Source: Fibrobacterota bacterium (GTDB lineage: Bacteria; Fibrobacterota; Chitinivibrionia; Chitinivibrionales; FEN-1185). From it: DNA of 64,000 nucleotides. The position numbers and the translations under genes are program-made. The stretch covers positions 269,542-333,541 of the forward strand of contig PLWQ01000012.1 of the NCBI GenBank assembly GCA_003165595.1. Reading direction: 5' to 3'. Every line of letters begins with the position of its first letter. Position 1 is the first letter of the stretch. This document shows, piece by piece, positions 2,388 to 58,190 of the stretch. A model generated the notes under the pieces. The model ran no database searches. It was not told the origin of the DNA and worked only from the letters and a program-made list of their open reading frames with translations.

Positions 2388-2950
2388 GATCAAGTAAGAG
2401 AAAGAAAGGATCTTTCAAAAGTTAACATCAGGTTAATCATTTTGCTATCCGGAGAATCCTGGTTAGGTTATTGCAAAGATAATTTTCCCTTGCAAGAATC
2501 GGTGCTTTGAGACAGGAACATTAGGCTCTTTGATTAATAACGCCGCAAATACTGGGCCACTCCCACAATCCGCAGCTATCCTTGATTTCGGTTTCTTTTC
2601 GATTAAAATTTGCAGAAATGATAAGAAACAAGCTTTACGGCACCTGACAATTCGTGCGGCCGGTGTCGACGGACCCGGATACCGGTTTCATCTGGTAGCA
2701 GGCACCAGTAGCGCATACGTCCATGACCTCGGCACGCCGACATTCTCTTCAATGTTAAGCCTGTCGGACAACGCTTCTGCTGCAAGAAACTGTTCATGAT
2801 TCAGCGAAACCTCGCCATGAACAGTTTCTAATCATTTGGAGTAGCCGCGCTAGCGAACCTTCGAGGGTATGGCAATCACTATAATGATTGGCGCGAAGCA
2901 CCATTACCATACCATAAGGTAACGAAGTGACAATGCGCTCGCTATGGGAT

Positions 2951-5137
2951 TCAATCCCAATTGAAATTCGTATGGAGGTTGACAAAGAACGTACGTCCCT
3001 CCTCCGGATATCCTGCTTCTAAAAAGTAGTTCTTATCAGAGACATTCCTTACTCCCCCCTCGAATGACGCGTTTGCACCCAGAGGAACATTTAATGATGC
3101 ATTCCAGAGAGCGTACTCGGGAACCGTTGATCCTTGACTTGTCGTATAGCGCCAAGAATCGTATTCTGCACTTATAAGGGCATAGCATCCGGTGATCGGG
3201 GTATATTTGACATATCCGACGACTTTGCCCGGAGGTATGTCGGTAAATTTGATCGCCGGATGAGAGAGGTTGTGTTTGTCTAGATAGCTGGCGTTTGCGC
3301 CAATCTCCAACGCTTTCGCCCACTCAACATCGTGAAAAACCGTAGCGTCAAGGCTCAGTTCAACTCCCGGCATCTCGGCCTCACCGGTATTCTGCATCTG
3401 TGCACGTGCATTGGCATCCAGCACGCCTGCTTTAATCACGCTGTCAACCGACTGTATCGCATCATACAAATGCGTGTAGAAAAGGCTCACATGGCCGGAT
3501 AATGACCATTTCCCCAGATTCAATCCCGCATCATAGGCCGCCTCATAATTAACGGCATCTTCAGGTTGAAGAGTAGGATTGGGAATCGCCGTGCCCAGCT
3601 TGTAGGAATATCGATCCTTGAGCGTCGGGAACCTTGTCTTGCGCGCTATCGATATACTGGCATTCTGTGAACTATTGATATCAATTGTCGCCTTGCCCTC
3701 CGCATTAAAAGCTTGGGCGTTGTTGCTCGGGAAAGGGACTATCGAGTCAAAAACATTCTGAAATATCTTACCGTTGTAATGCGAGTAGAAATTGTCCGCT
3801 TCAACACTTGACCGGTTATCATAGGAAATTCCTCCTGTCAAGTTGAGAATCTTGAGAATAGTGGCGCCGTCCTCTAAACCAAGCGAAAACGTGTTGTCCT
3901 TGAAATGCCGTAAAGGCTCTTCCTGAAACGGTTTGGTGTTGGCTACCTTGACGGTGTCGTAGGCATTATGTTCTTCATGATAGTCTCGTTTGCCGTGAAG
4001 GGCGACACTCATCTCGTTTCCCGGAATAATGGTAGTGCCGAGTTCAACGGCGCCGCCTGCTGTCCAGTCATCATAATTGCTTTTAAAAGAAGACCTTTTC
4101 TTGAATGTCGAATAGGTCGAATCGTCACAAGCGAAAAGGCTGTTGCTCAACTCATTATAATAGACCGGAACCTTGAGGGAAAAATTATCGGAAAGCACGG
4201 TTTTTGAAGACAGGTAGACGCTCTGTTTGTCCCAATAGGGCCAATACCAGTAGCGTACCATGCCCGTGGGATCGACGGTCGGCGGTACACCTTTTTCCCC
4301 ATGTTGATTATCATAGGAGAGTGCATATTCATCACCTGGCGCCGGGTCCCACCCGATTTTTGCACTCGCCTTTGCATCACGGTGATATGAATTTGCGCGT
4401 AACCCGCCACTCTGGAGCACAGTCGGGGTAAATGCTTTCGACAACTCATAATTGCCTTTGTCAAGATCGGAAATCGAGCCCATCAGAAAAAAATTACCCA
4501 ATCGAGACCCTACGCCTATGTTCATGAGACTGCCGTTTAAATGGGGCATAAGCGTTGAGTCGCGCTTGGTGTCGACATACCCCATGGTGCCCACATCCGC
4601 TTGCAGTTCGAGCTTGTGCACCGGTTTCCGGGTAACCAGATTGATCGCTCCCCCAATTGCATTCGGGCCGTAGAGTACCGAAGAATATCCTTTTTCAACC
4701 TTTATTTCCGAATAATCGAACGTCGTGAAACGTCCCAGGTCGACATATCCGTCGTACGGCACATAAATCGGAACGCCGTCGATATAGAGGGGAACCGAGC
4801 GCAGATCAAATCCTCGGATATATACTTGCGACTCGTTTCTTGGACCGATATCGGAAACGTTTACTCCGGGAAGAAGCGAAAGTGCGCGGGCAACATCGGT
4901 GCGGCCGAATTCCTTCATTTGTGCACTGGTGACAACATCCTTATTCTGTTGTTTTTTCTCGCTGCCGGTGACAACAACGGTTCCAAGCGAAAAAACCGAT
5001 GATGTATCCTGCTTGAGCGCCGTGTCACGCTGACTTGTGCCGGTAACATCAGCGGCTCTCGATGGAAATGCATTTACTATAAGGCATAATGAAAACAGGA
5101 TTAAGGAGTGATTGGTTATTGGGTGCGCACGAGACAT
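2951..5137 (-). CDS. TonB-dependent outer-membrane receptor (plug plus 22-strand barrel type), substrate unknown
   Basis: 728 aa with a signal peptide. It has a TonB-box-like LGTVVVTG and plug motifs (IRGFDLRSVPLYIDGVPIY, YGPNAIGGAINLVT). The terminal aromatic barrel end is ...NLHTNFNWD. No N-terminal STN signalling extension is present. Confidence 0.9.
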   Translation of the reverse strand: MSRAHPITNHSLILFSLCLIVNAFPSRAADVTGTSQRDTALKQDTSSVFSLGTVVVTGSEKKQQNKDVVTSAQMKEFGRTDVARALSLLPGVNVSDIGPRNESQVYIRGFDLRSVPLYIDGVPIYVPYDGYVDLGRFTTFDYSEIKVEKGYSSVLYGPNAIGGAINLVTRKPVHKLELQADVGTMGYVDTKRDSTLMPHLNGSLMNIGVGSRLGNFFLMGSISDLDKGNYELSKAFTPTVLQSGGLRANSYHRDAKASAKIGWDPAPGDEYALSYDNQHGEKGVPPTVDPTGMVRYWYWPYWDKQSVYLSSKTVLSDNFSLKVPVYYNELSNSLFACDDSTYSTFKKRSSFKSNYDDWTAGGAVELGTTIIPGNEMSVALHGKRDYHEEHNAYDTVKVANTKPFQEEPLRHFKDNTFSLGLEDGATILKILNLTGGISYDNRSSVEADNFYSHYNGKIFQNVFDSIVPFPSNNAQAFNAEGKATIDINSSQNASISIARKTRFPTLKDRYSYKLGTAIPNPTLQPEDAVNYEAAYDAGLNLGKWSLSGHVSLFYTHLYDAIQSVDSVIKAGVLDANARAQMQNTGEAEMPGVELSLDATVFHDVEWAKALEIGANASYLDKHNLSHPAIKFTDIPPGKVVGYVKYTPITGCYALISAEYDSWRYTTSQGSTVPEYALWNASLNVPLGANASFEGGVRNVSDKNYFLEAGYPEEGRTFFVNLHTNFNWD

Positions 5138-46977: not shown

Positions 46978-49284
46978 ATGGCAAAAAAACGGAAACCGGC
47001 GCGTTCGGCGGCGGCACGAAAAACGGAACGTCTTCCTGCCCAAAAAGACGCGGGGAAAAAGCACGCCAAGGCCACAGCTTCACAAAGCAGACAAACCGCG
47101 TTTCGCCCGGCTTCCCCAAAACCGGGTTTCCCCGTAGTCGGCATCGGCGCTTCGGCCGGCGGGCTCGAGGCACTCGACGACCTTTTCAGGAACCTGCCCC
47201 CGGATACCGGAATGGCCTATATCGTCGTCACCCATCAGCACCCGGGGCACACGAGCCTTCTTCCGGAGCTTTTGAGCAAAGAAACAGAAATCTCCGTCGT
47301 GCAGGCCAAAGACGGCGCGGTCTTGGAACCGAACCACGTCTACGTTTCACCGCCCGGGGCCTACGTTGCGGTGATGGATTCCACCATCCAACTCATGGAA
47401 CCGCCTGCCAAGGAAATCCCTCCGCTTCCAATTGACTTCTTCTTTCGCTCACTGGCACTGGATCTTGAAGAACGTGCCATCTGCATTGTGCTTTCCGGCA
47501 CCGGCTCCGACGGCACCATAGGCCTCAGGGACATTAAGAGCCACGGGGGAATGGCGATTGTACAGGAGGTGAAATCGGCACGATACGCGGGAATGCCCGT
47601 GAGCGCCATAAGCACGTCCCTGGCGGACTGCATCCTGCCGCCCGCGGCAATGCCCTCCCGGCTTGTTGCCTATGTCAATGGAACAAACTTGGTGCGACCG
47701 CTGCCGGAACCCGTGGAAATCCCCCGGGAAATGGAACGGCCGTTGCAGAAGATCTTCGTCCTCCTGCGCACGCGTCTCGGCCACGATTTCTCGTCGTACA
47801 AATTGAGCACCCTCCGCAGGCGCATCGAGCGCAGGATGAACGCGCACCAGATTTCCCGGCCGGAGCAGTACGCGCTGTCACCCGTTGCTCCCGTCAAGAA
47901 GGAAGGCATTTCCACGGTGGTGGAAAAGTTGCTGCTTTCCCGCTTTGCACCGCCGAGCGTCGTGGTGGACTCGCGAGGCGACATCGTGTACGTGCACGGT
48001 CGCACAGGCTCCTATTTCGAGCCGGCAAGCGGTCAACCTCGGCTCAACGTCTTTGATATGTCGCGCGAGGGCCTCAAGACGTTCCTCGCCTCTGCCGTCA
48101 GGTCGGCCCTCTCCCGGAACAAGGAGGTGGTGCACGAACGGGTGCGCATCCGGTCGAACGAAGGCTACGAATATGTCAACATTTCCGTGTCGCCGATACA
48201 AGACCCCGAACCGGTGCGCGGGTTGCTGCTGGTGACCTTTTCGCAGGCCCCGCAGCACGGCAAAGAGCAACCCATCCGCGCGACGGTCGGCCCGGCCGTA
48301 CCGGTCCCCCACAAAACCGACCTGGAGCGCGACCTGCAATTTACCAGGGAGTCCCTGCGAACGACCGTGGCGGAATTGGACACTTCCAACGAGGAGTTGA
48401 AATCGACAAACGAAGAATTGCAGTCGACAAACGAGGAAATGCAAAGCGCCAACGAGGAACTCGAAACGTCCAAAGAGGAATTGCAATCCCTCAACGAGGA
48501 GCTCACCACGGTCAACACGGAATTGCAGAGAAGGGTGGAAGAGCTTTCGCAAACCAACGACGACATGCAGAACCTGCTCAACGGAACCGACATCGCCACG
48601 ATCTTCCTGGACAACGACCTCAAAATCAAACGCTATACCGACAAAGCGGTCAAGATCGTCAAGCTCATTCCGACCGACGTGGGCAGGCCCGTTGGCGACC
48701 TGGCCTCGAATATCGAGTACGACGGGTTTGAGCGCGACGCCCGGCAAGTGCTTGCAACCCTCAATTTCAAGGAAACCGAAGTTTTTTCCAAAGACAACAC
48801 CTGTTACCAAATGCGCATTATGCCCTATCGCACGGCACGAAACGTTATTGACGGCCTGGTGGTCACCTTCGTTGACGTCAACCGCGTCAAACAAGCCGAG
48901 ACCGCCGGGCGAGAGGCCCGCGAACTGTTTGAAAGCATCTTTTCGTCCATGCGTGAGCCTATGATCGTGCTCGACGAGAATCTGCATTTGGTCCAGGCCA
49001 ATTCGAGCTGGTATGGGCTTTTCCAAACCTCCTCAAAATTATGCGACGGTAAGCCGATATTCGAACTCATGGGCGATTCGTGGAGCTCCCCGGCCGCGCG
49101 GCAATGGTTGGAAAGAACCGTGAGCAGCGGCGGCCCCTTAACAAAGAACCTGGACCTGTCGGTAGAAGTACCGCTGGCAGGACACCTGCGGTTCCATGTT
49201 GTTGCCAGGCGTGTGGAAAGCGGCGGCAAAGGCCGGCCGGCCAGGGCCTTGCTGCTTATGGAAAAGGCCGGAGAAAAATCGTGA
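46978..49284 (+). CDS. CheB-like methylesterase domain, CheR N-terminal remnant, PAS_10-like domain, coiled coil and PAS protein
   Basis: It has VVGIGASAGGLEAL...VLSGTGSDGT (CheB type), then FSSYKLSTLRRRIERRM (CheR_N). After that it jumps straight to LLLSRFAPPSVVVDSRGDIVYVHGRTG. The coiled coil is NEELKSTNEELQSTNEEMQSANEELETSKEELQSLNEEL. Confidence 0.8.
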   Translation: MAKKRKPARSAAARKTERLPAQKDAGKKHAKATASQSRQTAFRPASPKPGFPVVGIGASAGGLEALDDLFRNLPPDTGMAYIVVTHQHPGHTSLLPELLSKETEISVVQAKDGAVLEPNHVYVSPPGAYVAVMDSTIQLMEPPAKEIPPLPIDFFFRSLALDLEERAICIVLSGTGSDGTIGLRDIKSHGGMAIVQEVKSARYAGMPVSAISTSLADCILPPAAMPSRLVAYVNGTNLVRPLPEPVEIPREMERPLQKIFVLLRTRLGHDFSSYKLSTLRRRIERRMNAHQISRPEQYALSPVAPVKKEGISTVVEKLLLSRFAPPSVVVDSRGDIVYVHGRTGSYFEPASGQPRLNVFDMSREGLKTFLASAVRSALSRNKEVVHERVRIRSNEGYEYVNISVSPIQDPEPVRGLLLVTFSQAPQHGKEQPIRATVGPAVPVPHKTDLERDLQFTRESLRTTVAELDTSNEELKSTNEELQSTNEEMQSANEELETSKEELQSLNEELTTVNTELQRRVEELSQTNDDMQNLLNGTDIATIFLDNDLKIKRYTDKAVKIVKLIPTDVGRPVGDLASNIEYDGFERDARQVLATLNFKETEVFSKDNTCYQMRIMPYRTARNVIDGLVVTFVDVNRVKQAETAGREARELFESIFSSMREPMIVLDENLHLVQANSSWYGLFQTSSKLCDGKPIFELMGDSWSSPAARQWLERTVSSGGPLTKNLDLSVEVPLAGHLRFHVVARRVESGGKGRPARALLLMEKAGEKS

Positions 49285-49312
49285 GTACTCCCAAAAAACA
49301 AGGCGGACGAGA

Positions 49313-52300
49313 ATGAATCTTACTCGCCGTTCCATATCCCGGCTTCGCAAGGAAGCCGAATCGATCCTGAAGGAAAATCCGAATGCCGCGCCCGTCCTAA
49401 AGACGGCGAGCGTCCAAGAACTGCTTTACGAGCTTCAAGTTTACGAAACGGAGCTCGAAATTCAGAACGAGGACCTTCGGAAGGCGCACTTCGACCTTGT
49501 CGAGACGCGCGACCGCTTCGCCGAGTTGTACGACTTTGCTCCTACGGGTTACTTCACCCTGGACGCCGAAACAAGGATAGTGGAAGCCAACCTGACCGCG
49601 GTGAAATTGTTCGGCCTCAACCGTTCGGAAATCAAGGACGGCCGTTCCAAATTCTCCGACCTTGTCGCACCCCAAAGCCAGGACGACTGGTTCAGGTTCC
49701 GGCGGCGGATGTTTATCGGCGACGAAAAGCAGTCGTGCGAGCTCGATTGCGGCAGCGTCAAAGGCCCGTTTTTCAGGTGCCAGATCGAAAGCGTGGTGGT
49801 TCGCGGGGACGGGCATTCCGGCGACCAAAGTCTCATCGCCCTTATCGACATCACCGACCGCAGCAAGGCCCGGGAAGCCCTTCTGCACGCCAACAAAGTT
49901 ATCGGCGCCATTGCGACGCACGACGGTCTCGTAATTGCCGACGCGTCGGGAAAGATAACGGACATGAACCAAACCGCACTCGCCCTGTTCGGGTTCGGGT
50001 CCAAAGAAGATATGGTGCGGGTGATGTCCGGCGATGCAAAGGTGATGGACCTCTCCGGCCCGGACGGCAAGGAGCTATCCATAGGGCAATGGCCTCTAAT
50101 GCGGGTTTGCGCCGGAGAAAGTTTTGCGGAACAGGAATATTCGGTATACGTCCGCGCAACCAAACGGCGCTGGTACGCAGTCTTTAGCGGCGCGCCGGTC
50201 CGCGACGAAAACGGCAAGATAGAAAATGCAGTCTTGACAATACGCGATATTTCGGACAGGAAACAGGCCGAATGGGCAGAACAGGCGGCGCGCGAGCTCG
50301 CCGATCACAAGATGGAAGAGGCCCTGGAAATGAAGAATCGGCTCGAAGCCGTAATGCAGGTTCTACCCGTGGGCGTCGCCTTGCTCGACACCCAGGGCGG
50401 GACCATCTCGGCCAACCGGGCATTCGATGAAATCTGGGGTAACCCAAGGCCGGCAGCAAGAACTATCGGCGATTACATCCAGGATAAGGCGTCGTGGGCG
50501 GATACGGGGAAAACCGTATTGCCCGATGAGTGGGCGTCTTCGCGTGCGTTGCGCAACGGGAAAACCGTTACCGGCCAGATTATCCGGATCGTCGGCTTTG
50601 ACGGCGTCCAGCGCGTTGTCCTTGACAACGCGGCACCCATTTTGGACACGTTCGGCGAAGTTGCCGGATGCGCAGTGACCATCCAGGACCTCACCCGGCA
50701 AATGGAAAACGAAAGAGCGGTCCGGGAAAGCGAAGAACGGCTGCGTCTTGCCCAGGTGAGCGCAAAAGTCGGGATATGGGACTGGGACCTTGCAAAGGAC
50801 TCCGTGGCCTTTACCCCGGAGCTCAACCTTATCTACGGCCTTGCGCCCGGCACCATCAAGACCTACCGGGACTGGCGCGGGTTCGCTGATCCGGACGACA
50901 TGGAAAATGCCGAAAAGGAGCGCGACAAGGCAATTGCCAAACGCGAACCGTTCAACCTGGAATTTCGCATCCGTCACAGCTCGGGCGAAGTGCGGTGGGT
51001 AAACGCCAAGGGCGGGGCCATGCGCGACAATGCCGGCAAACCCGTGCGCGTGCTCGGAGTCGTTATCGACATCACCGAGCGCAAACGAATGGAAGCATTG
51101 CTGCGGGAAAGCGAAGAACGGTATCGGCTCCTTGTCCAGAAGGCGCCGGCAGGCATTTTTGAGGTGGGTTTCCCCGACGGGAAACTATCAGATGTAAATG
51201 ACGCTATGTGCAACATCCTTGGCTACTCGCGCGCGGAGATCTCAAGCATCACCGCGTTCGACCTCCTCGACGACGAGGGGAAAATCCGCTTTGCCACCCG
51301 CATTCGCCAGGGGGAGTCCGGAGAAAAACCCGGAGAGTCCGTGGAATACAGGGTGCGGACAAAAGACGGGCACTTTTTGTGGGCGCTCCTGAACACCACC
51401 TTCAAATGGAACAACGGAAAGATCGTTGGGGCGATGGTGGTGGCGCACGATATCACCGAGCGCAAACAGATGGAAGAAAAGCTGCAAACCACGCTGCGGC
51501 GATTTTATCTGATCCTTTCGAATATGCATTTCGGGATCCTGCTCGTCACCAACGAAAATCGGGTTGAATTCGTCAACCAGTCGTTTTGTGATATGTTCGG
51601 TCTTAAAGATCTTCCCGACGATCTTATGAAACTGTCCGCGAATGAAATGATTGACAAAATCAGGCCTTGCTATGCAAAGCCCGACGAGGCCGTGGCCCGC
51701 ATCGGGGAACTGGTGCTTCTCGGCCAAACGGTAAGCGGCGAAGACGTGGGCATGGCCGGCGGACAGTCGCTGCTGCGGGATTTTATTCCTATCCGGATCG
51801 GCGACAAACTGTACGGCCGGCTTTGGGTCCATACGGACATCACCGAGCGCAAAAAGGCCGAGGAAACGCTGCGGGAAAGCGAACAGCGGTTTAAGTCGCT
51901 CTACTTGTCAATGTCGGAAGGGCTTGCCAACCATGAAATCGTCTATATCGATGAAAAAGCCGCCGACTACATCATCACCGATGCAAACCCGGCCTTCGAA
52001 CGTATCACCGGACTCGATCGAACGTCCTCCGTGGGTAAAAAGGCCTCGATTCTCTACGGGACGGGAAGCCCGCCCTTCCTGGACATCTACGCAAGGGTGG
52101 CGGAGAGCGGCGTGCCGGAGTATTTTGAAACGCCATTCCCTCCCATGAAGAAGCACTTTGCCATTTCGGTGTTCTCTCCGGGTAAGGGAAAGTTCGCCAC
52201 GGTGTTCGCCGACATCACCGAGCGCAAACAGGTCGAAGAAGCATTGGCTGCCGAATCGACTGCCACAGCTCTCCTTCAGAAGATCACCGCGCGCTTTGTA

Positions 52301-53299
52301 CGGGCAGGTGAGCTTGAGGACGCCCTCGGAGAGATCGTGGATGCCGCGATTGCCATGACCCATGCCGACATGGGCAACATCCAGCTTCTCCAGCCGGAAT
52401 CGGTTTGCCTCAAAATTGCAGCGTATCGCGGATTCGAAGAACCGTTCCTGAATTTCTGGAACGCGGTCGCCGGGGGCCAGGGCAACTGCGGTACGGCAAT
52501 AAAGAAAGCGGAGCGCTCAATTGTCGAGGACGTCACCAAAAGCGATATTTTGGTCGGAACCCCATCCCTCAAGGTTCAGCTCGACGCGGGCGTTCGTGCC
52601 GTCCAATCCACTCCCTTGATAAGCCATTCGGGCACTCTTATTGGAATGCTGTCCACGCACTGGCGTGTTCCCCATCGGCCGCAGCAACGCGAATTGGATC
52701 TGCTCGACCTGCTGGTCCAGGAGGCGGTGGATATTATCGAGCTTGCCCGTGCCGAAGATGCCCTGCGCGAAAGTGAGGAACGGTTCAAGGCCATTGCAGA
52801 AACCACACCGGTCGGCATTGGGGTGGTCGGGCTCTCCGAGGCAACATTTCTATATGTCAATCCAGCGTATGTAAAATCGTTCGGCTACACCGAAAGCGAG
52901 ATTCTTGGCAAGGGCGTGCAAGACATTTATTGGAGCATTGAAGACCGGGACCGGGTACTGGGCATCCTCAAGAAAGAAGGAAATGTTGCAGAATATGAAG
53001 TGAAACTCAAACGCAAGGACGGGGCGCCGTTCTGGGGATTGTCGTCGGTGCGGCCCATAACCTATGGCGGCAGACCGGCGCTCCTTGGCGCATTCGTCGA
53101 CATCACCGAGCGCAGGCGTGCGGAGGATGAGGTCAAGCGGCACGCCGAGGAACTGAAAGCGGCGAATGAGGAACTGGTGCGCTTTAACCGCGCCATGGTC
53201 GACCGTGAATTACGCATGATCGAGCTTAAGAAACAAGTGAACGAATTGTGCGGAAAAATGGGGATGGAGCCGATGTATAAGGTGGGAAAAGAACAATAA
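49313..53299 (+). CDS. Multi-PAS/GAF sensor protein without recognisable output domain (about 1328 aa)
   Basis: ORF 49196..53299 trimmed to ATG 49313. The N-terminus has ELQVYETELEIQNEDLR. Repeated PAS units are separated by DITERK...LRESEERxx linkers, and there is one GAF. The C-terminal coiled coil is NEELVRFNRAMVDRELRMIELKKQVNELCGKMG. Confidence 0.85.
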   Translation: MNLTRRSISRLRKEAESILKENPNAAPVLKTASVQELLYELQVYETELEIQNEDLRKAHFDLVETRDRFAELYDFAPTGYFTLDAETRIVEANLTAVKLFGLNRSEIKDGRSKFSDLVAPQSQDDWFRFRRRMFIGDEKQSCELDCGSVKGPFFRCQIESVVVRGDGHSGDQSLIALIDITDRSKAREALLHANKVIGAIATHDGLVIADASGKITDMNQTALALFGFGSKEDMVRVMSGDAKVMDLSGPDGKELSIGQWPLMRVCAGESFAEQEYSVYVRATKRRWYAVFSGAPVRDENGKIENAVLTIRDISDRKQAEWAEQAARELADHKMEEALEMKNRLEAVMQVLPVGVALLDTQGGTISANRAFDEIWGNPRPAARTIGDYIQDKASWADTGKTVLPDEWASSRALRNGKTVTGQIIRIVGFDGVQRVVLDNAAPILDTFGEVAGCAVTIQDLTRQMENERAVRESEERLRLAQVSAKVGIWDWDLAKDSVAFTPELNLIYGLAPGTIKTYRDWRGFADPDDMENAEKERDKAIAKREPFNLEFRIRHSSGEVRWVNAKGGAMRDNAGKPVRVLGVVIDITERKRMEALLRESEERYRLLVQKAPAGIFEVGFPDGKLSDVNDAMCNILGYSRAEISSITAFDLLDDEGKIRFATRIRQGESGEKPGESVEYRVRTKDGHFLWALLNTTFKWNNGKIVGAMVVAHDITERKQMEEKLQTTLRRFYLILSNMHFGILLVTNENRVEFVNQSFCDMFGLKDLPDDLMKLSANEMIDKIRPCYAKPDEAVARIGELVLLGQTVSGEDVGMAGGQSLLRDFIPIRIGDKLYGRLWVHTDITERKKAEETLRESEQRFKSLYLSMSEGLANHEIVYIDEKAADYIITDANPAFERITGLDRTSSVGKKASILYGTGSPPFLDIYARVAESGVPEYFETPFPPMKKHFAISVFSPGKGKFATVFADITERKQVEEALAAESTATALLQKITARFVRAGELEDALGEIVDAAIAMTHADMGNIQLLQPESVCLKIAAYRGFEEPFLNFWNAVAGGQGNCGTAIKKAERSIVEDVTKSDILVGTPSLKVQLDAGVRAVQSTPLISHSGTLIGMLSTHWRVPHRPQQRELDLLDLLVQEAVDIIELARAEDALRESEERFKAIAETTPVGIGVVGLSEATFLYVNPAYVKSFGYTESEILGKGVQDIYWSIEDRDRVLGILKKEGNVAEYEVKLKRKDGAPFWGLSSVRPITYGGRPALLGAFVDITERRRAEDEVKRHAEELKAANEELVRFNRAMVDRELRMIELKKQVNELCGKMGMEPMYKVGKEQ

Positions 53300-53303
53300 A
53301 GAG

Positions 53304-53630
53304 TGATTGGGAAAAAAGAGAAAAGGGTCATTGGTCATCGGGAAAACGGAGAAGAGAGTCATTGGTCATTAGAACAAAAACCGAGAATCGGTCATTAGAA
53401 AGAATGGAGAAGAGGTCATCGGTTATCGGGAAAACAGAGAAAAGGGTTATTGGTCATCGGTCATTAGAAACAAGGCCGAGACGAGTTTCTTCCAATGACT
53501 AATGACTACTTCTCCCAATGACCTTTTCCGAATGACTAATGACTTTCTTTCCCAGTGACCTTTTCCCAATGACTAATGACTTCTTCTCCCAATGACCTTT
53601 TCCCAACGACGAATGACTTCTATTGGGGTA
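53304..53630. repeat. Dyad-symmetric array of GTCATTGGTCAT-type units (left flank of the four-helix-bundle gene)
   Basis: About 5 forward units (purine-rich GGGAAAAC/GAGAAAAGG spacer plus GTCATTGGTCATyrG) span 53304-53470. About 5-6 reverse units (CCAATGACTAATGAC plus TTCTTCTCCC) span 53490-53630. The centre is near 53480. Confidence 0.7.
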
Positions 53631-53637
53631 ACGGAAT

Positions 53638-54072
53638 ATGGTATTAGAAGAACTCGAAGTTTACAGGCTGGCAATAGACATCGGGGAACGCGTTTGGACC
53701 GAAGTCGCCCGCTGGGATTTCTTCGCGAAAGACACTGTCGGGAAGCAGCTTGTGAGAGCGGCGGACTCCGTTGCCGCAAACATCGGCGAGGGATTCGGCA
53801 GGTTCCACTATAAAGAAAACAAACATTTCCTCTACTACGGCAGGGGATCTCTGTTCGAAACCAAGACCTGGCTTCTCAAAGCCGAAAAACGAAAGTTGAT
53901 TTCCGGGGAAAGCCACCGGAATTTCGAGCAGGATCTCAACCGTCTCGGGCGAATGCTCAATGCCTATATCAAGTCCATCGGGAACGACTATCAGCGTGTT
54001 GCGGAAGATGGCGCCCAATGGAATTTGGATCCATCTCCGGAGGCGGGAGACCCGTTTGCGAATGAAAAATAG
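53638..54072 (+). CDS. Four-helix-bundle protein of the 23S rRNA intervening-sequence protein family
   Basis: 144 aa. LEVYRLAIDIGERVW...GKQLVRAADSVAANIGEGFGRFHYKENKHFLYYGRGSLFETKTWL matches the family signature. Confidence 0.8.
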   Translation: MVLEELEVYRLAIDIGERVWTEVARWDFFAKDTVGKQLVRAADSVAANIGEGFGRFHYKENKHFLYYGRGSLFETKTWLLKAEKRKLISGESHRNFEQDLNRLGRMLNAYIKSIGNDYQRVAEDGAQWNLDPSPEAGDPFANEK

Positions 54073-54074
54073 AA

Positions 54075-54480
54075 AGAAATGGTCATTAGTCATTGGAAAT
54101 CATAAGATGGAAAGAAATGGTCATTAGTCATTGGAAATCGTGGGCGGAAAATGTGTGTATGCTGTTGCAAATGAAAATAGAAAGAATGGGCATTAGTCAT
54201 TGGAAATCGTGAGTGGAAAATGGCGCATATCCTGTTGCAAATAAAAATAGAAAGAATGGGCATTAGTGATTGGAAATCAAAAGACGGAAAGAAATGGTCA
54301 TTAGTTATTAGAAATTGGAAGTAGAAGGTGGTACACATGTCTTTCCAGGACCTTTTCCCAATGACCAATGACCTTTTTCCAATGACCAATGACTCTTTTC
54401 CTGTGTTCAATGACTTTTTTGACGACCAATGCCCCTTTCCCAATGACGAATGACTCTCTTTATGACCAATGACCTTTTCT
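54075..54480. repeat. Second dyad-symmetric GTCATTAGTCATTGG / CCAATGACCAATGAC array (right flank), including 70-bp tandem repeats
   Basis: Forward units span 54080-54312 and reverse units span 54350-54480. Within the forward half, a ~70-bp unit recurs starting at 54163 and 54233 and copies the ORF 3' end. Confidence 0.7.
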
Positions 54481-54492
54481 TGTGATTCCGGG

Positions 54493-55119
54493 ATGACCAT
54501 GCCAAACAAAACCAACCTTACTTTTGTCAAGGTGCTGTCCGGCATCGTGGCCGCTGCGGGCCTCGCGGTCATGGCGGGCTGGATATTCAACGTCGTCCTT
54601 GTCAAGAGCGTAGCTCCGGGCCTTATTACAATGAAGTTCTCAACCGCATTTGCTTTTGTGGTAAGCGGGATCACCCTTTACTTTCTGGTACGGGCGCGGG
54701 AGGGCGAGTTCGAGAAGGCGCAGGTCGCGCTTTCCATAACCTCGTTCATCCTCGCTCTTCTCATGGGCCTGCTTTTCTTCTCCGCCGTCTTTGGTATCGA
54801 GACCGGGATCGAGAGCCTGTTCGTTAGGGACACTGGAGACGCGAGAAGCGTGGTGCCGGGAATGCCGTCCATTCCCACTACGTTCAATTTTCTGCTGGTC
54901 GCTCTTGCGGGGATCCTTGCCATCCTCAATCCTACCGGGAAACGCCAAAAGTTCAGAACCATTGGCGCCATTCTCGGCGTTACTGGTGCGCTGGCCGCTG
55001 CGGGATACGTTCTCGGCGCCCCGCTGCTGTATTATTTCATTCCAGCCGTCAACTCAGCCATGGCTTTGCATACGGCTCTGTTGTTCGTGGCATTGGGAGC
55101 GGGGTTGCTATGTCTATAA
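54493..55119 (+). CDS. Six-TM membrane protein resembling stand-alone N-terminal sensor modules of histidine kinases
   Basis: ORF trimmed to ATG 54493. The pattern is AGLAVMAGWIFNVVLVKSVAPGLITMKFSTAFAFVVSG. Its stop overlaps the next gene's ATG by 10 nt. Confidence 0.6.
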   Translation: MTMPNKTNLTFVKVLSGIVAAAGLAVMAGWIFNVVLVKSVAPGLITMKFSTAFAFVVSGITLYFLVRAREGEFEKAQVALSITSFILALLMGLLFFSAVFGIETGIESLFVRDTGDARSVVPGMPSIPTTFNFLLVALAGILAILNPTGKRQKFRTIGAILGVTGALAAAGYVLGAPLLYYFIPAVNSAMALHTALLFVALGAGLLCL

Positions 55120-58100
55120 GATCAAGGCTCATTATTATTATTCTTTCGTTGGTCACCATTCCCCTGCTTTTCGTGAGCACCGTTACCTTTTCCAATTACA
55201 AGAATTCCCTGACGGAAAGCCGGCTTACACAACTGCAGAGCCTGGCCCATTTCAAAGCGAAAGAAATCCAAGCGTACTTTGAGAGCCTTAAGAACACCCT
55301 GGAAATGTCCCGCGGATTCTATAATGTCAGGAAGAACATCCCCGAATTGTCCCGGTTGCAAAGGGACCCGCTTAACCCGGCAGCAGCCATTGCCCGGAAG
55401 ACGCTCGACGGACAATTGGTAAGAATGCAGAAAGCCCTGGACCTGGCGGATATCATGCTTGCGGACACGGGCGGCACCGTTGTCTACGTGAGCAACCCCA
55501 GGCACAAAATGGACCTGTCCAGGTCACTCGGCGAAATCTCCCCGGAGATCCTGAGCCAAAGGTCGACAGACCTTTACTTTTCGGACGTATTCATCAACAG
55601 GCTGGCGGGGAACAGGCCGGAAATACTCGCAACCGTTCCGATCGCCGACCTTAACGGGGCGCCGGCAGGCACCCTCATCCTCGAAATAGACATGGAGCCC
55701 TTGTATCGGCTGATCCAGGACACCACGGGACTGGGAGCCACCGGAGAGATTCTCGTGGGTAAACGATCCGGAAGCGATATCGTGTACCTGAATCCTTTGC
55801 GGCACGACAACAAAGCGGTCCTGTCGAGGCATGTCGGCATCGGAAAGAAAATAGCGCTTCCAATCCAGAATGGTGTTGCCGGCAAGACAGGAATCGGCAT
55901 GTCGGTCGATTACCGCGGGAATAATGTCGTGGCGGCCTGGACGCATATTGCGTTCCCCGATTGGGGGCTGGTTGCAAAGATAGACGCCCGGGAAGAATTT
56001 GCAGTGGTGACGAATTTGCAGCGTTTGTTGTTCATGGTGCTTGCCGTTGTTTTCGTGATGGCCGGCATCATAACGTTTTCAGTCGCGCAATCCATTTCCG
56101 TCCCCATTCAAAAACTCGCCAAAGGCGCGGAGATCATCGGCGGCGGCAACCTCGACCATAAGGTCGGGATGACTTTGAACGACGAAATAGGCCGGCTTTC
56201 CCGGTCATTCGACAAAATGACGCACGATTTAAGAACGACTCTCGCCTCGCGCGACGAGTTGAACAGGGAAATAGAGCGCCGCAAGGCCGCGGAAGGGGAG
56301 CGGGAAATTGCCGTTGAGTTCCTGCAGCTTGTCAATGATTCCAAGGGACTCGAAGAGTTGGTGAGATCGGCCGTCTCCTTTTTAAAGCAGAAGTCGGGGT
56401 TCGAATCGGTGGGGATAAGGCTCAGGCAGGGCGACGACTACCCCTATTTCGAAACACGGGGATTTCCCGAAGAATTCGTGCTCGCCGAAACGCACCTGTG
56501 CAGCCGCGACAGCGCCGGCATGCCTGTTCGCGGCAGCGACGGGTACCCCATCATGGAATGCATGTGCGGCAATGTGATTCAGGGCCGGACTGACCCGTCC
56601 AAGAGTTTTTTTACAAAGCGGGGCAGCTTCTGGAGCAACGGCACGACGGAATTGCTCACCACCACCACCGAAGCCGACCGGCAGGCGCGCACGCGGAACC
56701 GCTGCAACGGCGAGGGATACGAATCGGTGGGGCTCTTTGCCCTGCGCATGAGCGGCGAGAGTCTGGGCCTGCTGCAGCTTAACGACAAGAAGAAGGGGAT
56801 GTTCTCCCACTCGTCGCTTGCCTTGTGGGAAAGGCTTTCCGACGATCTCTCCGTTGCGTTGTCGAAATTTCTTGCCGAGAAGGAACTTCGCAAAAGTGAA
56901 GAGGGCCTCAAACAGGCGCAGGAACTTTCGCACCTGGGAAACTGGGAACTCGACCTCACCAACAACCGGCTCACCTGGTCCGACGAGATCTACCGGATCT
57001 TCGGTCTTGCGCCCCAGGAATTCGGCGCCACCCACGAGGCATTTCTCCATGCGGTGCATCCGGACGACCGTGCAGCGGTGGACGCGGCGTATTCCGGGTC
57101 GGTTCGCGAAAACAAGGATTCCTACGAAATAGAACACCGGGTGGTACGCAAGGGAAGCGGCGAGGTCCGCATCGTGCACGAGAAATGCGAGCATTTCCGG
57201 GACGCGGAAGGAAGAGTCGTCCGCTCGGTGGGCATGGTGCACGATATTACCGAGCGCAAACTCGCGGAGGAGAAGATCATTCTTGCAAAAGAGGAATGGG
57301 AGAGGACGTTCAACAGCGTGCCCGACCTTATCGCCATTCTCGACCGTAAACATACCATAATGCGGGTAAACATGGCGATGGCGAAAAAGATCGGGCGGAC
57401 GCCCGACGAGTGCGCGGGGCTCAAATGCTACGAAGTGGTGCACGGCTCCAACGCGCCGCCCTTCTTTTGTCCGCACGCGGTTTTGTTGACGGATGGTAAA
57501 GAGCATGCCGTCGAGGTCCACGAGGACAATTTGGGGGGCGATTTTCTCGTTACCACGACCCCGCTATTCGGCACGGACGGTCAAATGACGGGATCGGTGC
57601 ACGTCGCGCGCGACATCACCGAACGCAAGAAGGCCGAAGAGGCCCTCCGCGAAAGCCAGGAACGGTTCCGCGTGATTGCCGACGCGTCGCCGATTCAAAT
57701 ATCCGTAGGCCGCGAGGAAGACGGTACTATTCTCTTTACGAACCCTGAATACGATCGGGCGTTCGGATTTGCCAAAGGGGAACTCCTCGGCCGCAAGACG
57801 CCGGAACTCTACAACGATCCCGCCGAGCGGAACAAGCTTATCAAGGCCCTTAAAGAAGCGGGGGCTCTAAAAAATTATGAAATACAAGTGAAGAAATCCG
57901 ACGGAACCCCGTTCTGGGTCTCGATTTCCATTAATCGTATCATCTATTCGGGCGAACCTGCGCTTCTTGCCACGTCAATAGACATCACCGACCGCAAACG
58001 TGCCGAAGAGGACCTGCGGATGCGCACCGAAGAGCTCAGGGAAACCAATGAAGAGTTGACGTTCTTCAACCGCACCATGGCGGACCGGGAAGAGCGCATG

Positions 58101-58190
58101 ATCGAATTGAAAATGCAAATCAACGAATTGTGCAAACAACTGGGCAAGCCACCGCACTATGACGTCGATTTCGGCGAGGAAAAAGCATGA
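55110..58190 (+). CDS. Cache-HAMP-GAF-multi-PAS sensor protein without recognisable output domain (1026 aa)
   Basis: It has an N-terminal TM, a periplasmic Cache-like region, a second TM and a HAMP (QKLAKGAEIIGGGNLDHKV...FDKMTHDL). PAS units have DITERK linkers. The C-terminal NEELTFFNRTMADREERMIELKMQINELCKQLG is paralogous to the 49313..53299 tail. Confidence 0.85.
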   Translation: MSIRSRLIIIILSLVTIPLLFVSTVTFSNYKNSLTESRLTQLQSLAHFKAKEIQAYFESLKNTLEMSRGFYNVRKNIPELSRLQRDPLNPAAAIARKTLDGQLVRMQKALDLADIMLADTGGTVVYVSNPRHKMDLSRSLGEISPEILSQRSTDLYFSDVFINRLAGNRPEILATVPIADLNGAPAGTLILEIDMEPLYRLIQDTTGLGATGEILVGKRSGSDIVYLNPLRHDNKAVLSRHVGIGKKIALPIQNGVAGKTGIGMSVDYRGNNVVAAWTHIAFPDWGLVAKIDAREEFAVVTNLQRLLFMVLAVVFVMAGIITFSVAQSISVPIQKLAKGAEIIGGGNLDHKVGMTLNDEIGRLSRSFDKMTHDLRTTLASRDELNREIERRKAAEGEREIAVEFLQLVNDSKGLEELVRSAVSFLKQKSGFESVGIRLRQGDDYPYFETRGFPEEFVLAETHLCSRDSAGMPVRGSDGYPIMECMCGNVIQGRTDPSKSFFTKRGSFWSNGTTELLTTTTEADRQARTRNRCNGEGYESVGLFALRMSGESLGLLQLNDKKKGMFSHSSLALWERLSDDLSVALSKFLAEKELRKSEEGLKQAQELSHLGNWELDLTNNRLTWSDEIYRIFGLAPQEFGATHEAFLHAVHPDDRAAVDAAYSGSVRENKDSYEIEHRVVRKGSGEVRIVHEKCEHFRDAEGRVVRSVGMVHDITERKLAEEKIILAKEEWERTFNSVPDLIAILDRKHTIMRVNMAMAKKIGRTPDECAGLKCYEVVHGSNAPPFFCPHAVLLTDGKEHAVEVHEDNLGGDFLVTTTPLFGTDGQMTGSVHVARDITERKKAEEALRESQERFRVIADASPIQISVGREEDGTILFTNPEYDRAFGFAKGELLGRKTPELYNDPAERNKLIKALKEAGALKNYEIQVKKSDGTPFWVSISINRIIYSGEPALLATSIDITDRKRAEEDLRMRTEELRETNEELTFFNRTMADREERMIELKMQINELCKQLGKPPHYDVDFGEEKA

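Follow-up and report, generated by a model that had tools for sequence, protein, structure and literature searches.

A four-helix-bundle gene set in mirrored repeat arrays: an apparent operon-borne cassette related to 23S rRNA intervening sequences

INTRODUCTION

In a Fibrobacterota genome, a gene for a 144-aa four-helix-bundle protein sits among arrays of a short core repeat that alternate in polarity, between genes for sensor proteins. Because the same package of gene plus repeats is found inside ordinary operons of many phyla, it looks like a widespread guest cassette, and the locus described here like a resident copy of one. We found no earlier description of such a gene-in-arrays cassette, which looks to be of a kind related to the known intervening sequences (IVSs) of 23S rRNA. 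Of its identity as a cassette we are highly confident. The mechanism that we propose for it—RNase III cleavage, protein binding, transfer—is inferred, and may well prove wrong. Identity and mechanism taken together, we consider the reading probable, with ample room for error.

Proteins of this family, PF05635/TIGR02436, are abundant, two separate searches having each listed more than 2,200 of them, and we know of no function for them outside diversity-generating retroelements (DGRs). A fixed link between the gene and a subfamily-specific repeat supplies this orphan family with a function that can be tested, namely that a pentamer binds its own core. Since the early 1990s it has been asked where rRNA intervening sequences come from, and the cassette, the same gene-in-hairpin element in ordinary operons, offers a source population for them. 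Intergenic heptamer hairpins serve as fingerprinting markers and are not understood; the cassette suggests an explanation for those inside operons. There is a practical side as well, for cassettes split operons, yield spurious ORFs—a 194-aa example is described below—and probably break metagenome assemblies, and annotators could recognize them by their core arrays.

THE LOCUS

The window (the whole 64,000-nt stretch of DNA that was analyzed) carries the gene at 53638..54072 on the plus strand, where it matches the PF05635 and TIGR02436 profiles. Four arrays, also given here as plus-strand features, flank it in pairs. Array A (53304..53470) consists of forward GTCATT(G/A)GTCAT units and purine-rich spacers; it starts 5 nt past the stop codon of the upstream sensor gene, and Tandem Repeats Finder reports it at 53309–53460 with a period of 31, 5.1 copies and the consensus GGGAAAAAAGAGAAAAGGGTCATTGGTCATC. 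Array B (53490..53625; Tandem Repeats Finder 53492–53621; period 37, 3.5 copies, 88% matches) is made of reverse-polarity AATGAC/TAATGAC units and ends 13 nt short of the ORF. On the far side, array C (54072..54315; Tandem Repeats Finder 54072–54315 and 54110–54278) sets in at the stop codon of the ORF and repeats forward GGTCATTAGTCATTGG units with a period of 38 and a 70-nt super-repeat, and array D (54349..54480; Tandem Repeats Finder 54349–54479; period 21/40), of reverse-polarity CCAATGACCAATGAC units, finishes directly ahead of the next gene. Nowhere in these arrays do more than two cores adjoin, and the periods run from 21 to 38 nt. The neighbors, all on the plus strand and known from the ORF list and public gene calls, are a multi-domain sensor with PAS/GAF Pfam domains upstream (49196..53299) and, downstream, a membrane protein (54493..55119) and a dCache/HAMP/PAS sensor (55110..58190).

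With at most one mismatch allowed, GTCATTRGTCAT occurs 15 times in the window, and every occurrence falls inside 53327–54473: on the plus strand at 53327, 53358, 53446 and 53453 in array A and at 54082, 54120, 54189 and 54297 in array C, and on the minus strand at 53495, 53532 and 53569 in array B and at 54361, 54382, 54443 and 54462 in array D. Dinucleotide shuffles of the window give an expectation of 0.42 and a maximum of 3.

What the original prediction, made from the letters of the DNA alone, had said of the layout stands: the 144-aa ORF and all of the repeat elements are present, each flank switches polarity midway (A forward, B reverse; C forward, D reverse), and sensor genes lie on both sides. 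It had also placed the element outside any rRNA gene, and the neighbors do encode sensor proteins, while a search of the window against Rfam and for tRNAs returned no known RNA family and no tRNA. A 194-aa ORF on the minus strand (54090..54674), dismissed in the prediction as an artefact, appears in the ORF list and translates arrays C and D (…SLVIGKRSLVIGKRS…); it is missing from the public gene calls of the three loci that cover the region (L001–L003), and the dismissal is reasonable.

Could chance low complexity, faulty assembly or the decay of a CRISPR-like array account for the region? Many of the homologues come from very short contigs, which implies that such repeats disturb assembly, and a survey of 2013 reported members of the family within cas loci (PMC3936711). 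We regard the idea as already refuted, nonetheless, and give it virtually no weight. The interval 53250–54550 is the same, base for base, in four assemblies from differing samples and sources, the count of motif matches lies far outside chance, and conservation of the feature extends to syntenic relatives and to 80 further species. CRISPR arrays are defined by identical repeats of 24–40 nt and unique spacers, usually near cas genes; here the cores are 6–7 nt, the spacers are purine-rich and repeated rather than unique, the polarity is mirrored, the gene calls near the cassette include no cas genes, and PADLOC finds no defence-system match. A CRISPR array is excluded on these grounds.

THE ENCODED PROTEIN

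The assignment to the IVS-protein family, as originally predicted, is borne out by matches well above the cut-offs: E = 3.2e-26 and 92 bits for PF05635 (cut-off 33.8), E = 2.9e-26 and 91.8 bits for TIGR02436 (cut-off 24). These families go under the names ‘23S rRNA intervening sequence protein’, ‘S23p’ and Avd-like. An AlphaFold model (mean pLDDT 75) has helices at 3–24, 28–50, 71–84 and 90–120, and its best Foldseek match is 2GSC (Xcc0516; target TM 0.80, E 1.6e-4), followed by 2RLD (BT_0352) and then by Avd (8UBE/4DWL); the crystal structures 2GSC and 2RLD contain five chains each. Of the reported family motif GxxRxxxSxxxNxxE (PMC3936711), the RxxxSxxxNxxE portion is present as R40-S44-N48-E51, and S44, N48 and E51 are invariant in the homologue alignment.

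Avd shares this fold, and its pentameric barrel contacts a structured RNA that is encoded beside its own gene: all five protomers touch a single stem-loop via equivalent crevices, the same residues of different protomers making the contacts (bioRxiv 10.1101/2023.10.23.563531). Avd and its stem-loop could thus serve as a model, by analogy, for a pentamer that reads a repeated core, and on the same analogy the window protein is probably an Avd-like pentamer that recognizes its own flanking repeats. Binding is inferred here; there are no binding data for members of the family outside DGRs. The cassette differs from DGRs in several respects. In place of a single stem-loop, its putative RNA element consists of a core repeated before and after the gene; neither a reverse transcriptase nor template or variable repeats occur nearby; and the score against the NCBIfam Avd equivalog NF033474 falls below the cut-off (16.7 bits against 80). 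The PHROG Avd match to the protein is likewise weak.

FOLDING OF THE FLANKS

Folding energies were compared with those of 100 dinucleotide shuffles. Every pairing of arrays of opposite polarity beats the shuffled controls: A with B (−120.3 kcal/mol, z −8.4), C with D (−110.1 kcal/mol, z −5.7), A with D (−118.4 kcal/mol, z −5.4) and B with C (−118.5 kcal/mol, z −6.0). The same-polarity controls do not, either for A with C (−62.7 kcal/mol, z +1.4) or for B with D (−18.1 kcal/mol, z +3.8). The long imperfect hairpin predicted for each flank is therefore supported by the A–B and C–D values, and the giant stem with the ORF in its loop is possible too, given those for A–D and B–C; the minimum-energy fold of the whole region agrees with the latter, pairing A with D and B with C. 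When the right flank is folded in one piece, of 441 nt, the result is weaker (z −2.6). Across 72 loci, the flank-to-flank duplex has a median z of −2.9 against 0.0 for controls (p = 5e-9). Of the spacers that separate cores, 23% are self-complementary, with GAA/GCA loops, as opposed to 6% in shuffles.

How much of this has been selected as RNA structure is another matter. Core variants on the sense strand exhibit no G·U wobble bias (45 compatible versus 62 incompatible, p = 0.12), and once the cores are masked, the complementarity between flanks is only slightly higher within a locus than between loci (20 versus 18). Selection for an RNA stem beyond the core must thus be weak, and the ‘giant perfect stem’ was dropped as a selected feature. 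The original prediction put the weight on stem complementarity; the decisive feature is instead a rigid, subfamily-specific 6-nt core, without which little complementarity remains.

GENE AND CORE ACROSS PHYLA

The comparative set comprises 80 homologous loci from about ten phyla, drawn from among the matches listed in the collection scans, and includes no cyanobacterial, Leptospira or Coxiella loci; the family does have cyanobacterial members, such as alr0549 of Nostoc PCC 7120. Over the 400 nt that precede the gene, forward GTCATT occurs at 8.65/kb, falling to 0.34/kb farther off (about 25-fold), and AATGAC at 8.68/kb downstream and 0.52/kb farther off (about 17-fold). A motif-free search for enriched 7-mers recovers the same core, with a peak no more than ~150 nt from the start and stop codons. 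The canonical layout, in which forward cores precede the gene and reverse cores follow it, is found at 64 of 77 loci, and only three of the 77 lack cores altogether. So close is the join that the downstream array begins at a median offset of −2 nt from the stop codon, and at 25 of 77 loci a TGA stop lies inside a core. Gene and core are thus demonstrably linked across about ten phyla, as far as sequence comparison can establish it, and our literature search found no description of a link between PF05635 genes and repeats.

The question, raised in the original prediction, of whether four-helix-bundle genes in other genomes carry similar flanks is answered in the affirmative insofar as flanking arrays are common to the homologues; the ‘double-dyad’ form that the window displays is not general, and occurs at only 4 of 70 loci. 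Elsewhere pure 7-nt runs are found, as at L032 and L054, and forward-then-reverse dyads without an ORF occur at L023, L010, L020 and L058.

A second subfamily of the protein has the same layout and a different core, GCAGTAR before the gene and YTACTGC after it. AGTARG reaches 11.1/kb upstream of these genes and CYTACT 5.9/kb downstream, over a background of about 0.3/kb, and GTCATT is not enriched near them; only about 40% of the subfamily-2 loci have arrays on both sides. At one locus, L014, genes of both subfamilies stand in tandem, each with its own core.

The core is rigid, with 486 perfect copies to about 107 transition variants, and its spacing has modes at 10–11 nt. Both features, the second equal to the DNA helical repeat, suit an explanation at the level of DNA, in which the arrays would be double-stranded binding sites for the protein or a partner, comparable with iterons, plasmid omega-repressor heptads or the subterminal repeats of transposons, and would act in regulation of the gene or in synapsis of the ends for excision and insertion. 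The lack of wobble asymmetry is in keeping with this, as are the opposite orientations of the arrays at the two ends, which recall transposon ends, and the ORF-less dyads, which resemble non-autonomous derivatives. Yet the cassette encodes no transposase, no recombinase and no known DNA-binding fold, the nearest characterized relative, Avd, binds RNA and a reverse transcriptase, and an enrichment of mini-hairpins in the spacers would be meaningless in duplex DNA. We think this explanation unlikely, though it is the one among the rivals that we take most seriously.

OPERON CONTEXT AND INSERTION

Cassettes occupy the junctions of mutA and mutB, of gltB and gltD, of PseB-like and DegT genes, of genes for a thiolase and an acyl-CoA dehydrogenase, and of genes for an ABC binding protein and its permease. 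Culturable carriers include Roseimarinus sediminis DSM 28824 (L062), where the cassette lies between PseB-like and DegT genes, and Chryseosolibacter indicus PWU20 (L053). Both neighbors are co-oriented in 88% of cases. This is only modestly above the local background of about 74% (p = 0.006), and so we relied on a sense/antisense comparison instead: at all 60 loci whose two neighbors share a strand, the cassette lies on that strand, too. A scan of the cassette for sigma-70-like promoters found none (only sigma-70-type sites were sought), and terminator-like sites are at chance level. Four universally conserved 23S motifs, sought across 171 fetched loci, gave a single isolated 10-mer match (L040), and none of these loci resembles 23S rRNA.

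One junction offers a before-and-after comparison. Between mutA and mutB the gap is 673 nt in L020, which has a cassette, and 24–62 nt in four relatives whose MutB is 85–93% identical; since the junction is empty in these close relatives, the cassette must have come by insertion. The suspicion that the element is ‘selfish or mobile’ is in this way upheld elsewhere in the family. The empty sites are short heptamer arrays (TTGAAAG) unlike the cassette core, from which it follows that the arrays travel in with the gene. At this one insertion, comparison of L020 with L168–L171 reveals no target-site duplication (at most 3 nt are shared at the junctions); apart from the arrays there are no inverted repeats at the termini, the outer ends are unrelated, and a transposase is lacking. 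On the evidence of this single insertion, the cassette does not fit the definition of a transposon or MITE. A viral vehicle was rejected as well, there being no relative among 2.9 million viral contigs.

For the DNA-level explanation these results cut both ways, as the insertion polymorphism is genuine, whereas no target-site duplication is present and the strict sense orientation is not what DNA transposition alone would predict. A further possibility is a non-autonomous retroelement, in which an Avd-like pentamer on the repeats of the cassette RNA recruits a reverse transcriptase from elsewhere, and the cDNA enters transcribed intergenic sites. Sense-only orientation and the absence of a target-site duplication are compatible with RNA-templated, recombination-like insertion, the heptamer arrays of empty sites are possible microhomology, and Avd is an obligate cofactor of its reverse transcriptase that binds structured RNA beside the template. 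The proposal rests wholly on analogy, however: the gene calls within 3 kb of the window cassette are for PAS/GAF and dCache/HAMP sensors and include no reverse transcriptase, the cassette lacks poly-A tracts as well as template and variable repeats, and the Avd equivalog score falls far short. We judge it improbable, more so than the DNA-level explanation.

RELATIONSHIP TO KNOWN ELEMENTS

Among the closest parallels to the guest cassette is the 23S IVS of Leptospira, Coxiella burnetii and others, in which an S23p (PF05635) gene likewise occupies the loop of a stem with complementary flanks and is transcribed, sense-orientated, within a host RNA. The original prediction had drawn attention to this topology, and the literature on the Coxiella rRNA IVS bears it out: the termini are inverted repeats that RNase III cuts, and variable-copy tandem GACAGAT heptamers lie directly upstream of the S23p ORF (PMC4990558). 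ORF-bearing 23S IVSs have long been suspected of being selfish or once mobile (PMC4990558). Unlike these elements, the cassette is found in operons, between genes that encode proteins, and outside rRNA genes; a conserved core, repeated in multi-copy arrays, makes up its flanks in place of one 28-bp stem; its ORF is under strong purifying selection whereas that of the Coxiella IVS is decaying; and excision by RNase III has been demonstrated for IVSs and is only inferred for the cassette.

The short tandemly repeated repetitive (STRR) sequences of filamentous cyanobacteria, with units of 7 bp, form hairpins between genes that are transcribed together, hupS and hupL for example, and have no known function (PMC2670836). 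They resemble the ORF-less dyads as well as the A–B and C–D dyads of the window. Their runs are of pure heptamers, though, whereas the window's units pair two cores with an 18-nt purine-rich spacer; their hosts are filamentous cyanobacteria, and those here are not; and no link to a four-helix-bundle gene appears in the literature examined. The original prediction likened the TTGGTCA core to repeats of the STRR type, and TTGGTCA may be a named STRR unit; a literature search found no occurrence of that string among the papers listed. Arrays of TAACTGA in Beggiatoaceae, Cyanobacteria and Bacteroidetes are short intergenic direct repeats near start codons, scattered patchily over distant phyla in a way that suggests horizontal spread; in close relatives the intergenic regions are shorter and free of the repeats (PMC4679880). 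Those arrays are built on another motif, direct repeats prevail in them and only one set is inverted, and the paper makes no mention of a four-helix-bundle gene (PMC4679880).

Such elements invite the view that generic, STRR-like host hairpins stabilize or process operon transcripts, and that the four-helix-bundle gene is an unrelated passenger with a tendency to land there. ORF-less heptamer hairpins between operon genes are known (PMC2670836), ORF-less dyads occur in our own set, the empty mutA–mutB sites are themselves short heptamer arrays, and the TAACTGA arrays are spread over several phyla without a reported gene link. Against this stands the enrichment of the core exactly at the ends of the gene, 17- to 25-fold, with fixed polarity and in about ten phyla. 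It is the protein subfamily, and not the host, that the core follows—two cores adjoin in L014—and the empty-site heptamers are unlike it. A passenger gene strikes us as slightly less credible even than a retroelement.

REP/BIME elements with their RAYT transposases, and MITEs, are short palindromic intergenic repeats that occur in operons, are transcribed and have gene-less derivatives. All of them rely on a transposase, of the HUH or DDE type, and either their ends are defined or they make target-site duplications. The cassette, by contrast, has a four-helix-bundle gene as the only one linked to it, and its insertion at L020 showed no target-site duplication.

HOW THE CASSETTE MIGHT WORK

The guest-cassette reading, which we prefer, runs as follows. 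A PF05635 gene would travel with its own core arrays—GTCATT before and AATGAC after, in this subfamily—as the counterpart, outside rRNA, of those 23S intervening sequences that bear an ORF. Lacking a recognizable promoter or terminator, it would be transcribed by read-through from the host operon, although there are no transcript data. In the window, the RNA might form the local hairpins A–B and C–D or, at about equal energy, nest A–D around B–C with the ORF in the loop; at most other loci a single stem would enclose the ORF. RNase III, by analogy with the rRNA intervening sequences, is inferred to cut the array duplexes, which would free a small mRNA and separate the host cistrons. Subfamilies have different cores, even where they adjoin within a single genome, which rules out a general host factor as reader of the core; the likeliest candidate would be the encoded pentamer, one repeat to each protomer, as with Avd on the DGR RNA stem-loop. 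Binding might result in self-regulation, in protection of the RNA, or in help with copying to new sites.

Some observations pull the other way. The 10–11 nt spacing would equally suit a protein on one face of double-stranded DNA; gene and core may co-vary merely through joint inheritance; and as the cassette has no recombinase, transposase or reverse transcriptase, its route to new sites is unexplained.

A broader conjecture can be entertained only tentatively, and we would not be surprised to see it fail: that PF05635 genes and their repeats form one large, undescribed class of mobile cassettes, each subfamily reading its own code (GTCATT, GCAGTAR, GACAGAT and so on), of which rRNA IVSs are copies that landed in rRNA, and STRRs and ORF-less operon heptamer hairpins are footprints or gene-less derivatives.

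AGE AND SELECTION

At the window locus itself the cassette is no newcomer. The relatives of this locus all carry it, and gene order around it is syntenic in two of them, L005 and L006, whose proteins are 88% and 79% identical to that of the window. The original prediction spoke of an insertion between the sensor genes; a recent one did not take place here, and by these comparisons the cassette is an old, conserved resident. Set against the syntenic orthologues, the ORF has dN/dS values of 0.125 and 0.031. Repeats are conserved in the syntenic relatives, and the cores are kept in both the window and L006 at a dS of about 4, which is saturated. Judged from sequence alone, the gene and its cores are clearly under purifying selection in this lineage while the rest of the arrays turns over. 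The downstream gene, for its part, opens with a core-like sequence of its own (MTMPN, at 54493, begins ATGACC), and MTMPN(K/Q)TN is kept in L005.

The gene and its arrays

Between the stop codon of a PAS/GAF sensor gene (1367 aa; stop at 53299) and the start of a membrane protein gene (54493), the window holds a single 144-aa ORF and, apart from it, almost nothing but repeats. The ORF (53638–54072, + strand) clearly belongs to the four-helix-bundle family, also named '23S rRNA intervening sequence protein' (PF05635/TIGR02436; E about 3e-26). Around it, Tandem Repeats Finder and a repeat finder place four arrays: A (53304–53470) and B (53490–53625) upstream, C (54072–54315) and D (54349–54480) downstream. 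A and C carry the core in forward orientation, GTCATT; B and D carry it in reverse, AATGAC. The motif GTCATTRGTCAT matches 15 times in the window, all within one 1.2-kb stretch, against 0.42 expected. The arrays have a G+C content of 40%, the ORF 52% and the whole window 54%. The observation is real, and the sequence of the region is identical across four assemblies of differing samples and sources. No Rfam families or tRNAs were found in the window, and no promoter-like sites in 52800–55200, where terminator-like sites occur only at chance level.

We call such a gene, together with its own core-repeat arrays, a cassette. The original prediction, that this ORF and its foldable flanks form a possibly mobile element, is supported, and flanks, pairing, recurrence and insertion (at locus L020) all extend well beyond the window. 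We regard it as very likely that the window locus is one of a widespread kind of gene-plus-repeat cassette that is competent to insert.

Folding of the flanks

The prediction would have failed had the arrays paired no better than shuffled controls. When array pairs were co-folded, with z from 100 dinucleotide shuffles, every pair of opposite polarity did far better than that: A with B (−120.3 kcal/mol, z −8.4), C with D (−110.1, z −5.7), A with D (−118.4, z −5.4) and B with C (−118.5, z −6.0), versus the same-polarity controls A with C (−62.7, z +1.4) and B with D (−18.1, z +3.8). Because all opposite-polarity pairs co-fold well, two topologies are predicted to be about equally stable: a local one, with a hairpin on either side of the ORF, and a nested one, with the ORF in the loop of a stem, which is the one chosen by the minimum-energy fold of 1.2 kb. 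Family-wide, flank-to-flank duplexes have a median z of −2.9, with z < −3 in 36 of 72 loci; control flank pairs have a median of 0.0, with 1 of 67 below −3 (p = 5e-9).

A family-wide pattern

Subfamily 1, to which the window protein belongs, was surveyed in a set with a single genome for each species, an alignment of 21 homologues serving as query, and 80 loci were taken among the matches listed. These span Fibrobacterota, Lentisphaerota, Verrucomicrobiota, Planctomycetota (Scalindua) and Bacteroidota; further hosts include Ignavibacteriota, Desulfobacterota, Nitrospinota, KSB1 and Cloacimonadota, among others. Forward GTCATT reaches 8.65/kb within 400 nt upstream of the gene, versus 0.34/kb farther off, and AATGAC 8.68/kb downstream, versus 0.52/kb; the opposite orientations near the gene stand at 1.85 and 0.92/kb. 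Motif-free 7-mer enrichment recovers the same core, as TAGTCAT, AGTCATT and GTCATTA/G upstream and AAATGAC and AATGACA/G downstream, each in 40–56 loci. Whether homologues elsewhere carry similar flanks had been posed as a check, and they do: at 64 of 77 loci there is at least one forward core upstream and at least one reverse core downstream, and only three have none.

Cores are densest no more than about 150 nt from the start and stop codons. Spacing is chiefly 7, 10–11 or 14–15 nt, with a median of three cores per flank. The downstream array sets in at the stop codon (median offset −2 nt), and a core includes the TGA stop at 25 of 77 loci. The window's own layout is a minority form: arrays of both polarities on either side of the gene occur in 4 of 70 loci, versus 52 with the canonical layout.

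Several cassettes have ORF-less, forward-then-reverse GTCATT dyads nearby (L023:4445–4885, L010:3503–3816, L020:126–265, L058:2641–2712), their arms separated by loops of roughly 25–155 nt; these may be gene-less derivatives. Usual polarity is broken in a Bacteroidota locus (L066:1–684), where reverse AATGAC-type arrays flank the gene on both sides, 19 upstream and 20 downstream. Another locus has a second subfamily-1 copy about 1.1 kb downstream of the first (L022:3964–4392); GTCATT cores overlap the start of its ORF at the 5' end, and AATGAC cores follow it. Extra arrays beside canonical ones, TATTGAC x5 (L053:2899–2950) and GATAGTCAGT x4 (L069:2890–2980), suggest core drift or several array types per site. 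A large share of subfamily-1 and -2 homologues, among the matches listed, lie on contigs below 2 kb, as would be expected if arrays break short-read assemblies (the collection's overall median is about 1 kb).

A second subfamily, and other cores

At L014, a divergent, more Avd-like four-helix-bundle gene with different repeat flanks adjoins a subfamily-1 gene. The two cassettes stand in tandem (2501–3367), the first with GTCATT/AATGAC and the second (2987–3367) with TACTGC-type heptamers, in the same orientation on both sides. At eighty metagenome loci of this subfamily 2, among the matches listed, AGTARG-type heptamers reach 11.1/kb upstream and their complement CYTACT 5.9/kb downstream, against a background of about 0.3/kb; GTCATT enrichment is absent from these loci. 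When the dominant shared 6-mer is called locus by locus without supervision, subfamily 1 yields GTCATT or a rotation of it, and subfamily 2 yields rotations of GCAGTA(A/G). Another divergent copy (L074) is flanked by a third core, GGAGACG-like, and in the Coxiella rRNA IVS the ORF is preceded by GACAGAT heptamers (PMC4990558). Judged from sequence, then, the architecture is common to the subfamilies and the core specific to each, with two cores adjoining one another in a single genome.

Among known objects, the ORF-bearing intervening sequence of 23S rRNA comes closest: it shares the protein family and the ORF-in-stem topology, and its Coxiella version also has heptamers ahead of the ORF. The cassette, however, is not in rRNA, and so does not meet the defining location. 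Cyanobacterial STRR hairpins, ORF-less heptamers between operon genes (PMC2670836), and TAACTGA arrays (PMC4679880) are similar repeats, with no reported link to a gene. We found no paper on the repeat strings or the gene–repeat link; the search lay mostly outside subscription journals, so an earlier description is possible.

Setting and insertion

By Pfam, cassettes separate the two subunit genes of methylmalonyl-CoA mutase (small and large) and those of glutamate synthase (large and small); others lie between genes for a PseB-like dehydratase and a DegT aminotransferase, for thiolase and acyl-CoA dehydrogenase, or for an ABC binding protein and its permease. Gaps to the neighbors are short (medians 113 and 79 nt). 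In all 60 loci with same-strand neighbors the cassette shares their strand; by our calculation, the binomial probability of this under random insertion orientation is about 2e-18. By a looser measure, co-orientation of both neighbors, the share is 88%, only a little higher than the roughly 74% of the local background.

One insertion can be read directly. In L020 the mutA–mutB gap is 673 nt, cassette included; in four relatives without it (MutB 93, 93, 90 and 85% identical) the gap is 48, 62, 55 and 24 nt. Alignment places about 625 nt at …aaagttt|gaagtata…; the junctions share 3 nt at most, and apart from the arrays there are no terminal repeats. The empty junctions are themselves short tandem heptamer arrays, TTTAAAG/TTGAAAG/TATAAAG (L168:2952–3001, L169:2938–3001, L170:2945–3001), of a motif unrelated to the cassette core, and the L020 cassette sits inside such an array; heptamer arrays may be preferred targets. 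A search of viral contigs found no relative. PF05635-family genes have been found inside cas operons, between cmr3 and cmr2 for example (2013 survey, PMC3936711), and genome papers count them among strain-specific genes.

The window's cassette is an old, maintained resident and no recent arrival. The scaffold is a metagenome assembly whose nearest genome is a Fibrobacterota MAG. Two syntenic relatives share the order PAS sensor, four-helix-bundle gene, membrane protein, dCache sensor, and both retain the repeats, loss of which would have counted against the prediction: on each side of the gene, forward GGTCATT units and then reverse AATGACC units. Their arrays are shorter, with other spacers, and only the cores align with the window's. 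The four-helix-bundle protein is the best-conserved of the neighborhood (88 and 79% identity, versus 40–69% for the sensors), with dN/dS of 0.125 and 0.031. Against the 79% relative, synonymous sites are saturated (dS about 4), and cores that persist through this are either under selection or continually regenerated.

What reads the core?

In the mechanism we propose, the cassette would be transcribed by read-through, its flanks would fold and be processed by RNase III (excision is inferred), and the encoded pentamer would recognize the core. We advance this whole chain only tentatively, as something rather short of an even bet; the explanation as stated, overall, we consider somewhat favored.

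Among core variants, G·U-compatible changes on the sense strand are not in excess (45 vs 62), and once cores are masked, complementarity between the two flanks of a locus only slightly exceeds that between flanks taken from different loci. It seems, therefore, to be the core sequence that is selected, rather than a stem as such. A general host factor cannot, on this sequence evidence alone, be the reader, because the core differs between subfamilies within one genome. The sole element-encoded candidate is the four-helix-bundle protein, its binding inferred. Its model matches pentameric 2GSC and 2RLD, and also Avd; in a DGR ribonucleoprotein, all five Avd protomers touch a single RNA stem-loop, whose flipped-out bases sit in equivalent crevices (bioRxiv 10.1101/2023.10.23.563531). 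By analogy, a repeated core could plausibly be read through such contacts.

Spacers form mini-hairpins more often than shuffles do (23% vs 6%), with GAA/GCA loops, and about three times more commonly downstream. These, the sense-only orientation and the lack of a detected promoter or terminator favor a single-stranded substrate, probably RNA. The 10–11 nt spacing and the rigid core leave reading at the DNA level open.

Neighboring genes

The sensor proteins flanking the cassette have closely similar C-terminal segments (53120–53299 and 58010–58190), with the shared tail …EEL(K/R)xxNEEL…FNRxMxDRExRMIELKxQ(V/I)NELC…, and from this likeness are probably paralogues; the cassette lies directly after the tail of the upstream one. 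Within ORF 46978–49284, a 21-nt tandem repeat of 5.5 copies (48386–48500) codes for a seven-residue, (S/T)NEELQS-like unit (SNEELKSTNEELQSTNEEMQSANEELETSKEELQSLNEE). The downstream gene has three candidate starts (54469–54499), all used among public gene calls. The one kept in the syntenic relative L005 is the ATG at 54493 (MTMPN(K/Q)TN), and since this lies in a core-like ATGACC, array D may affect the gene's translation initiation.
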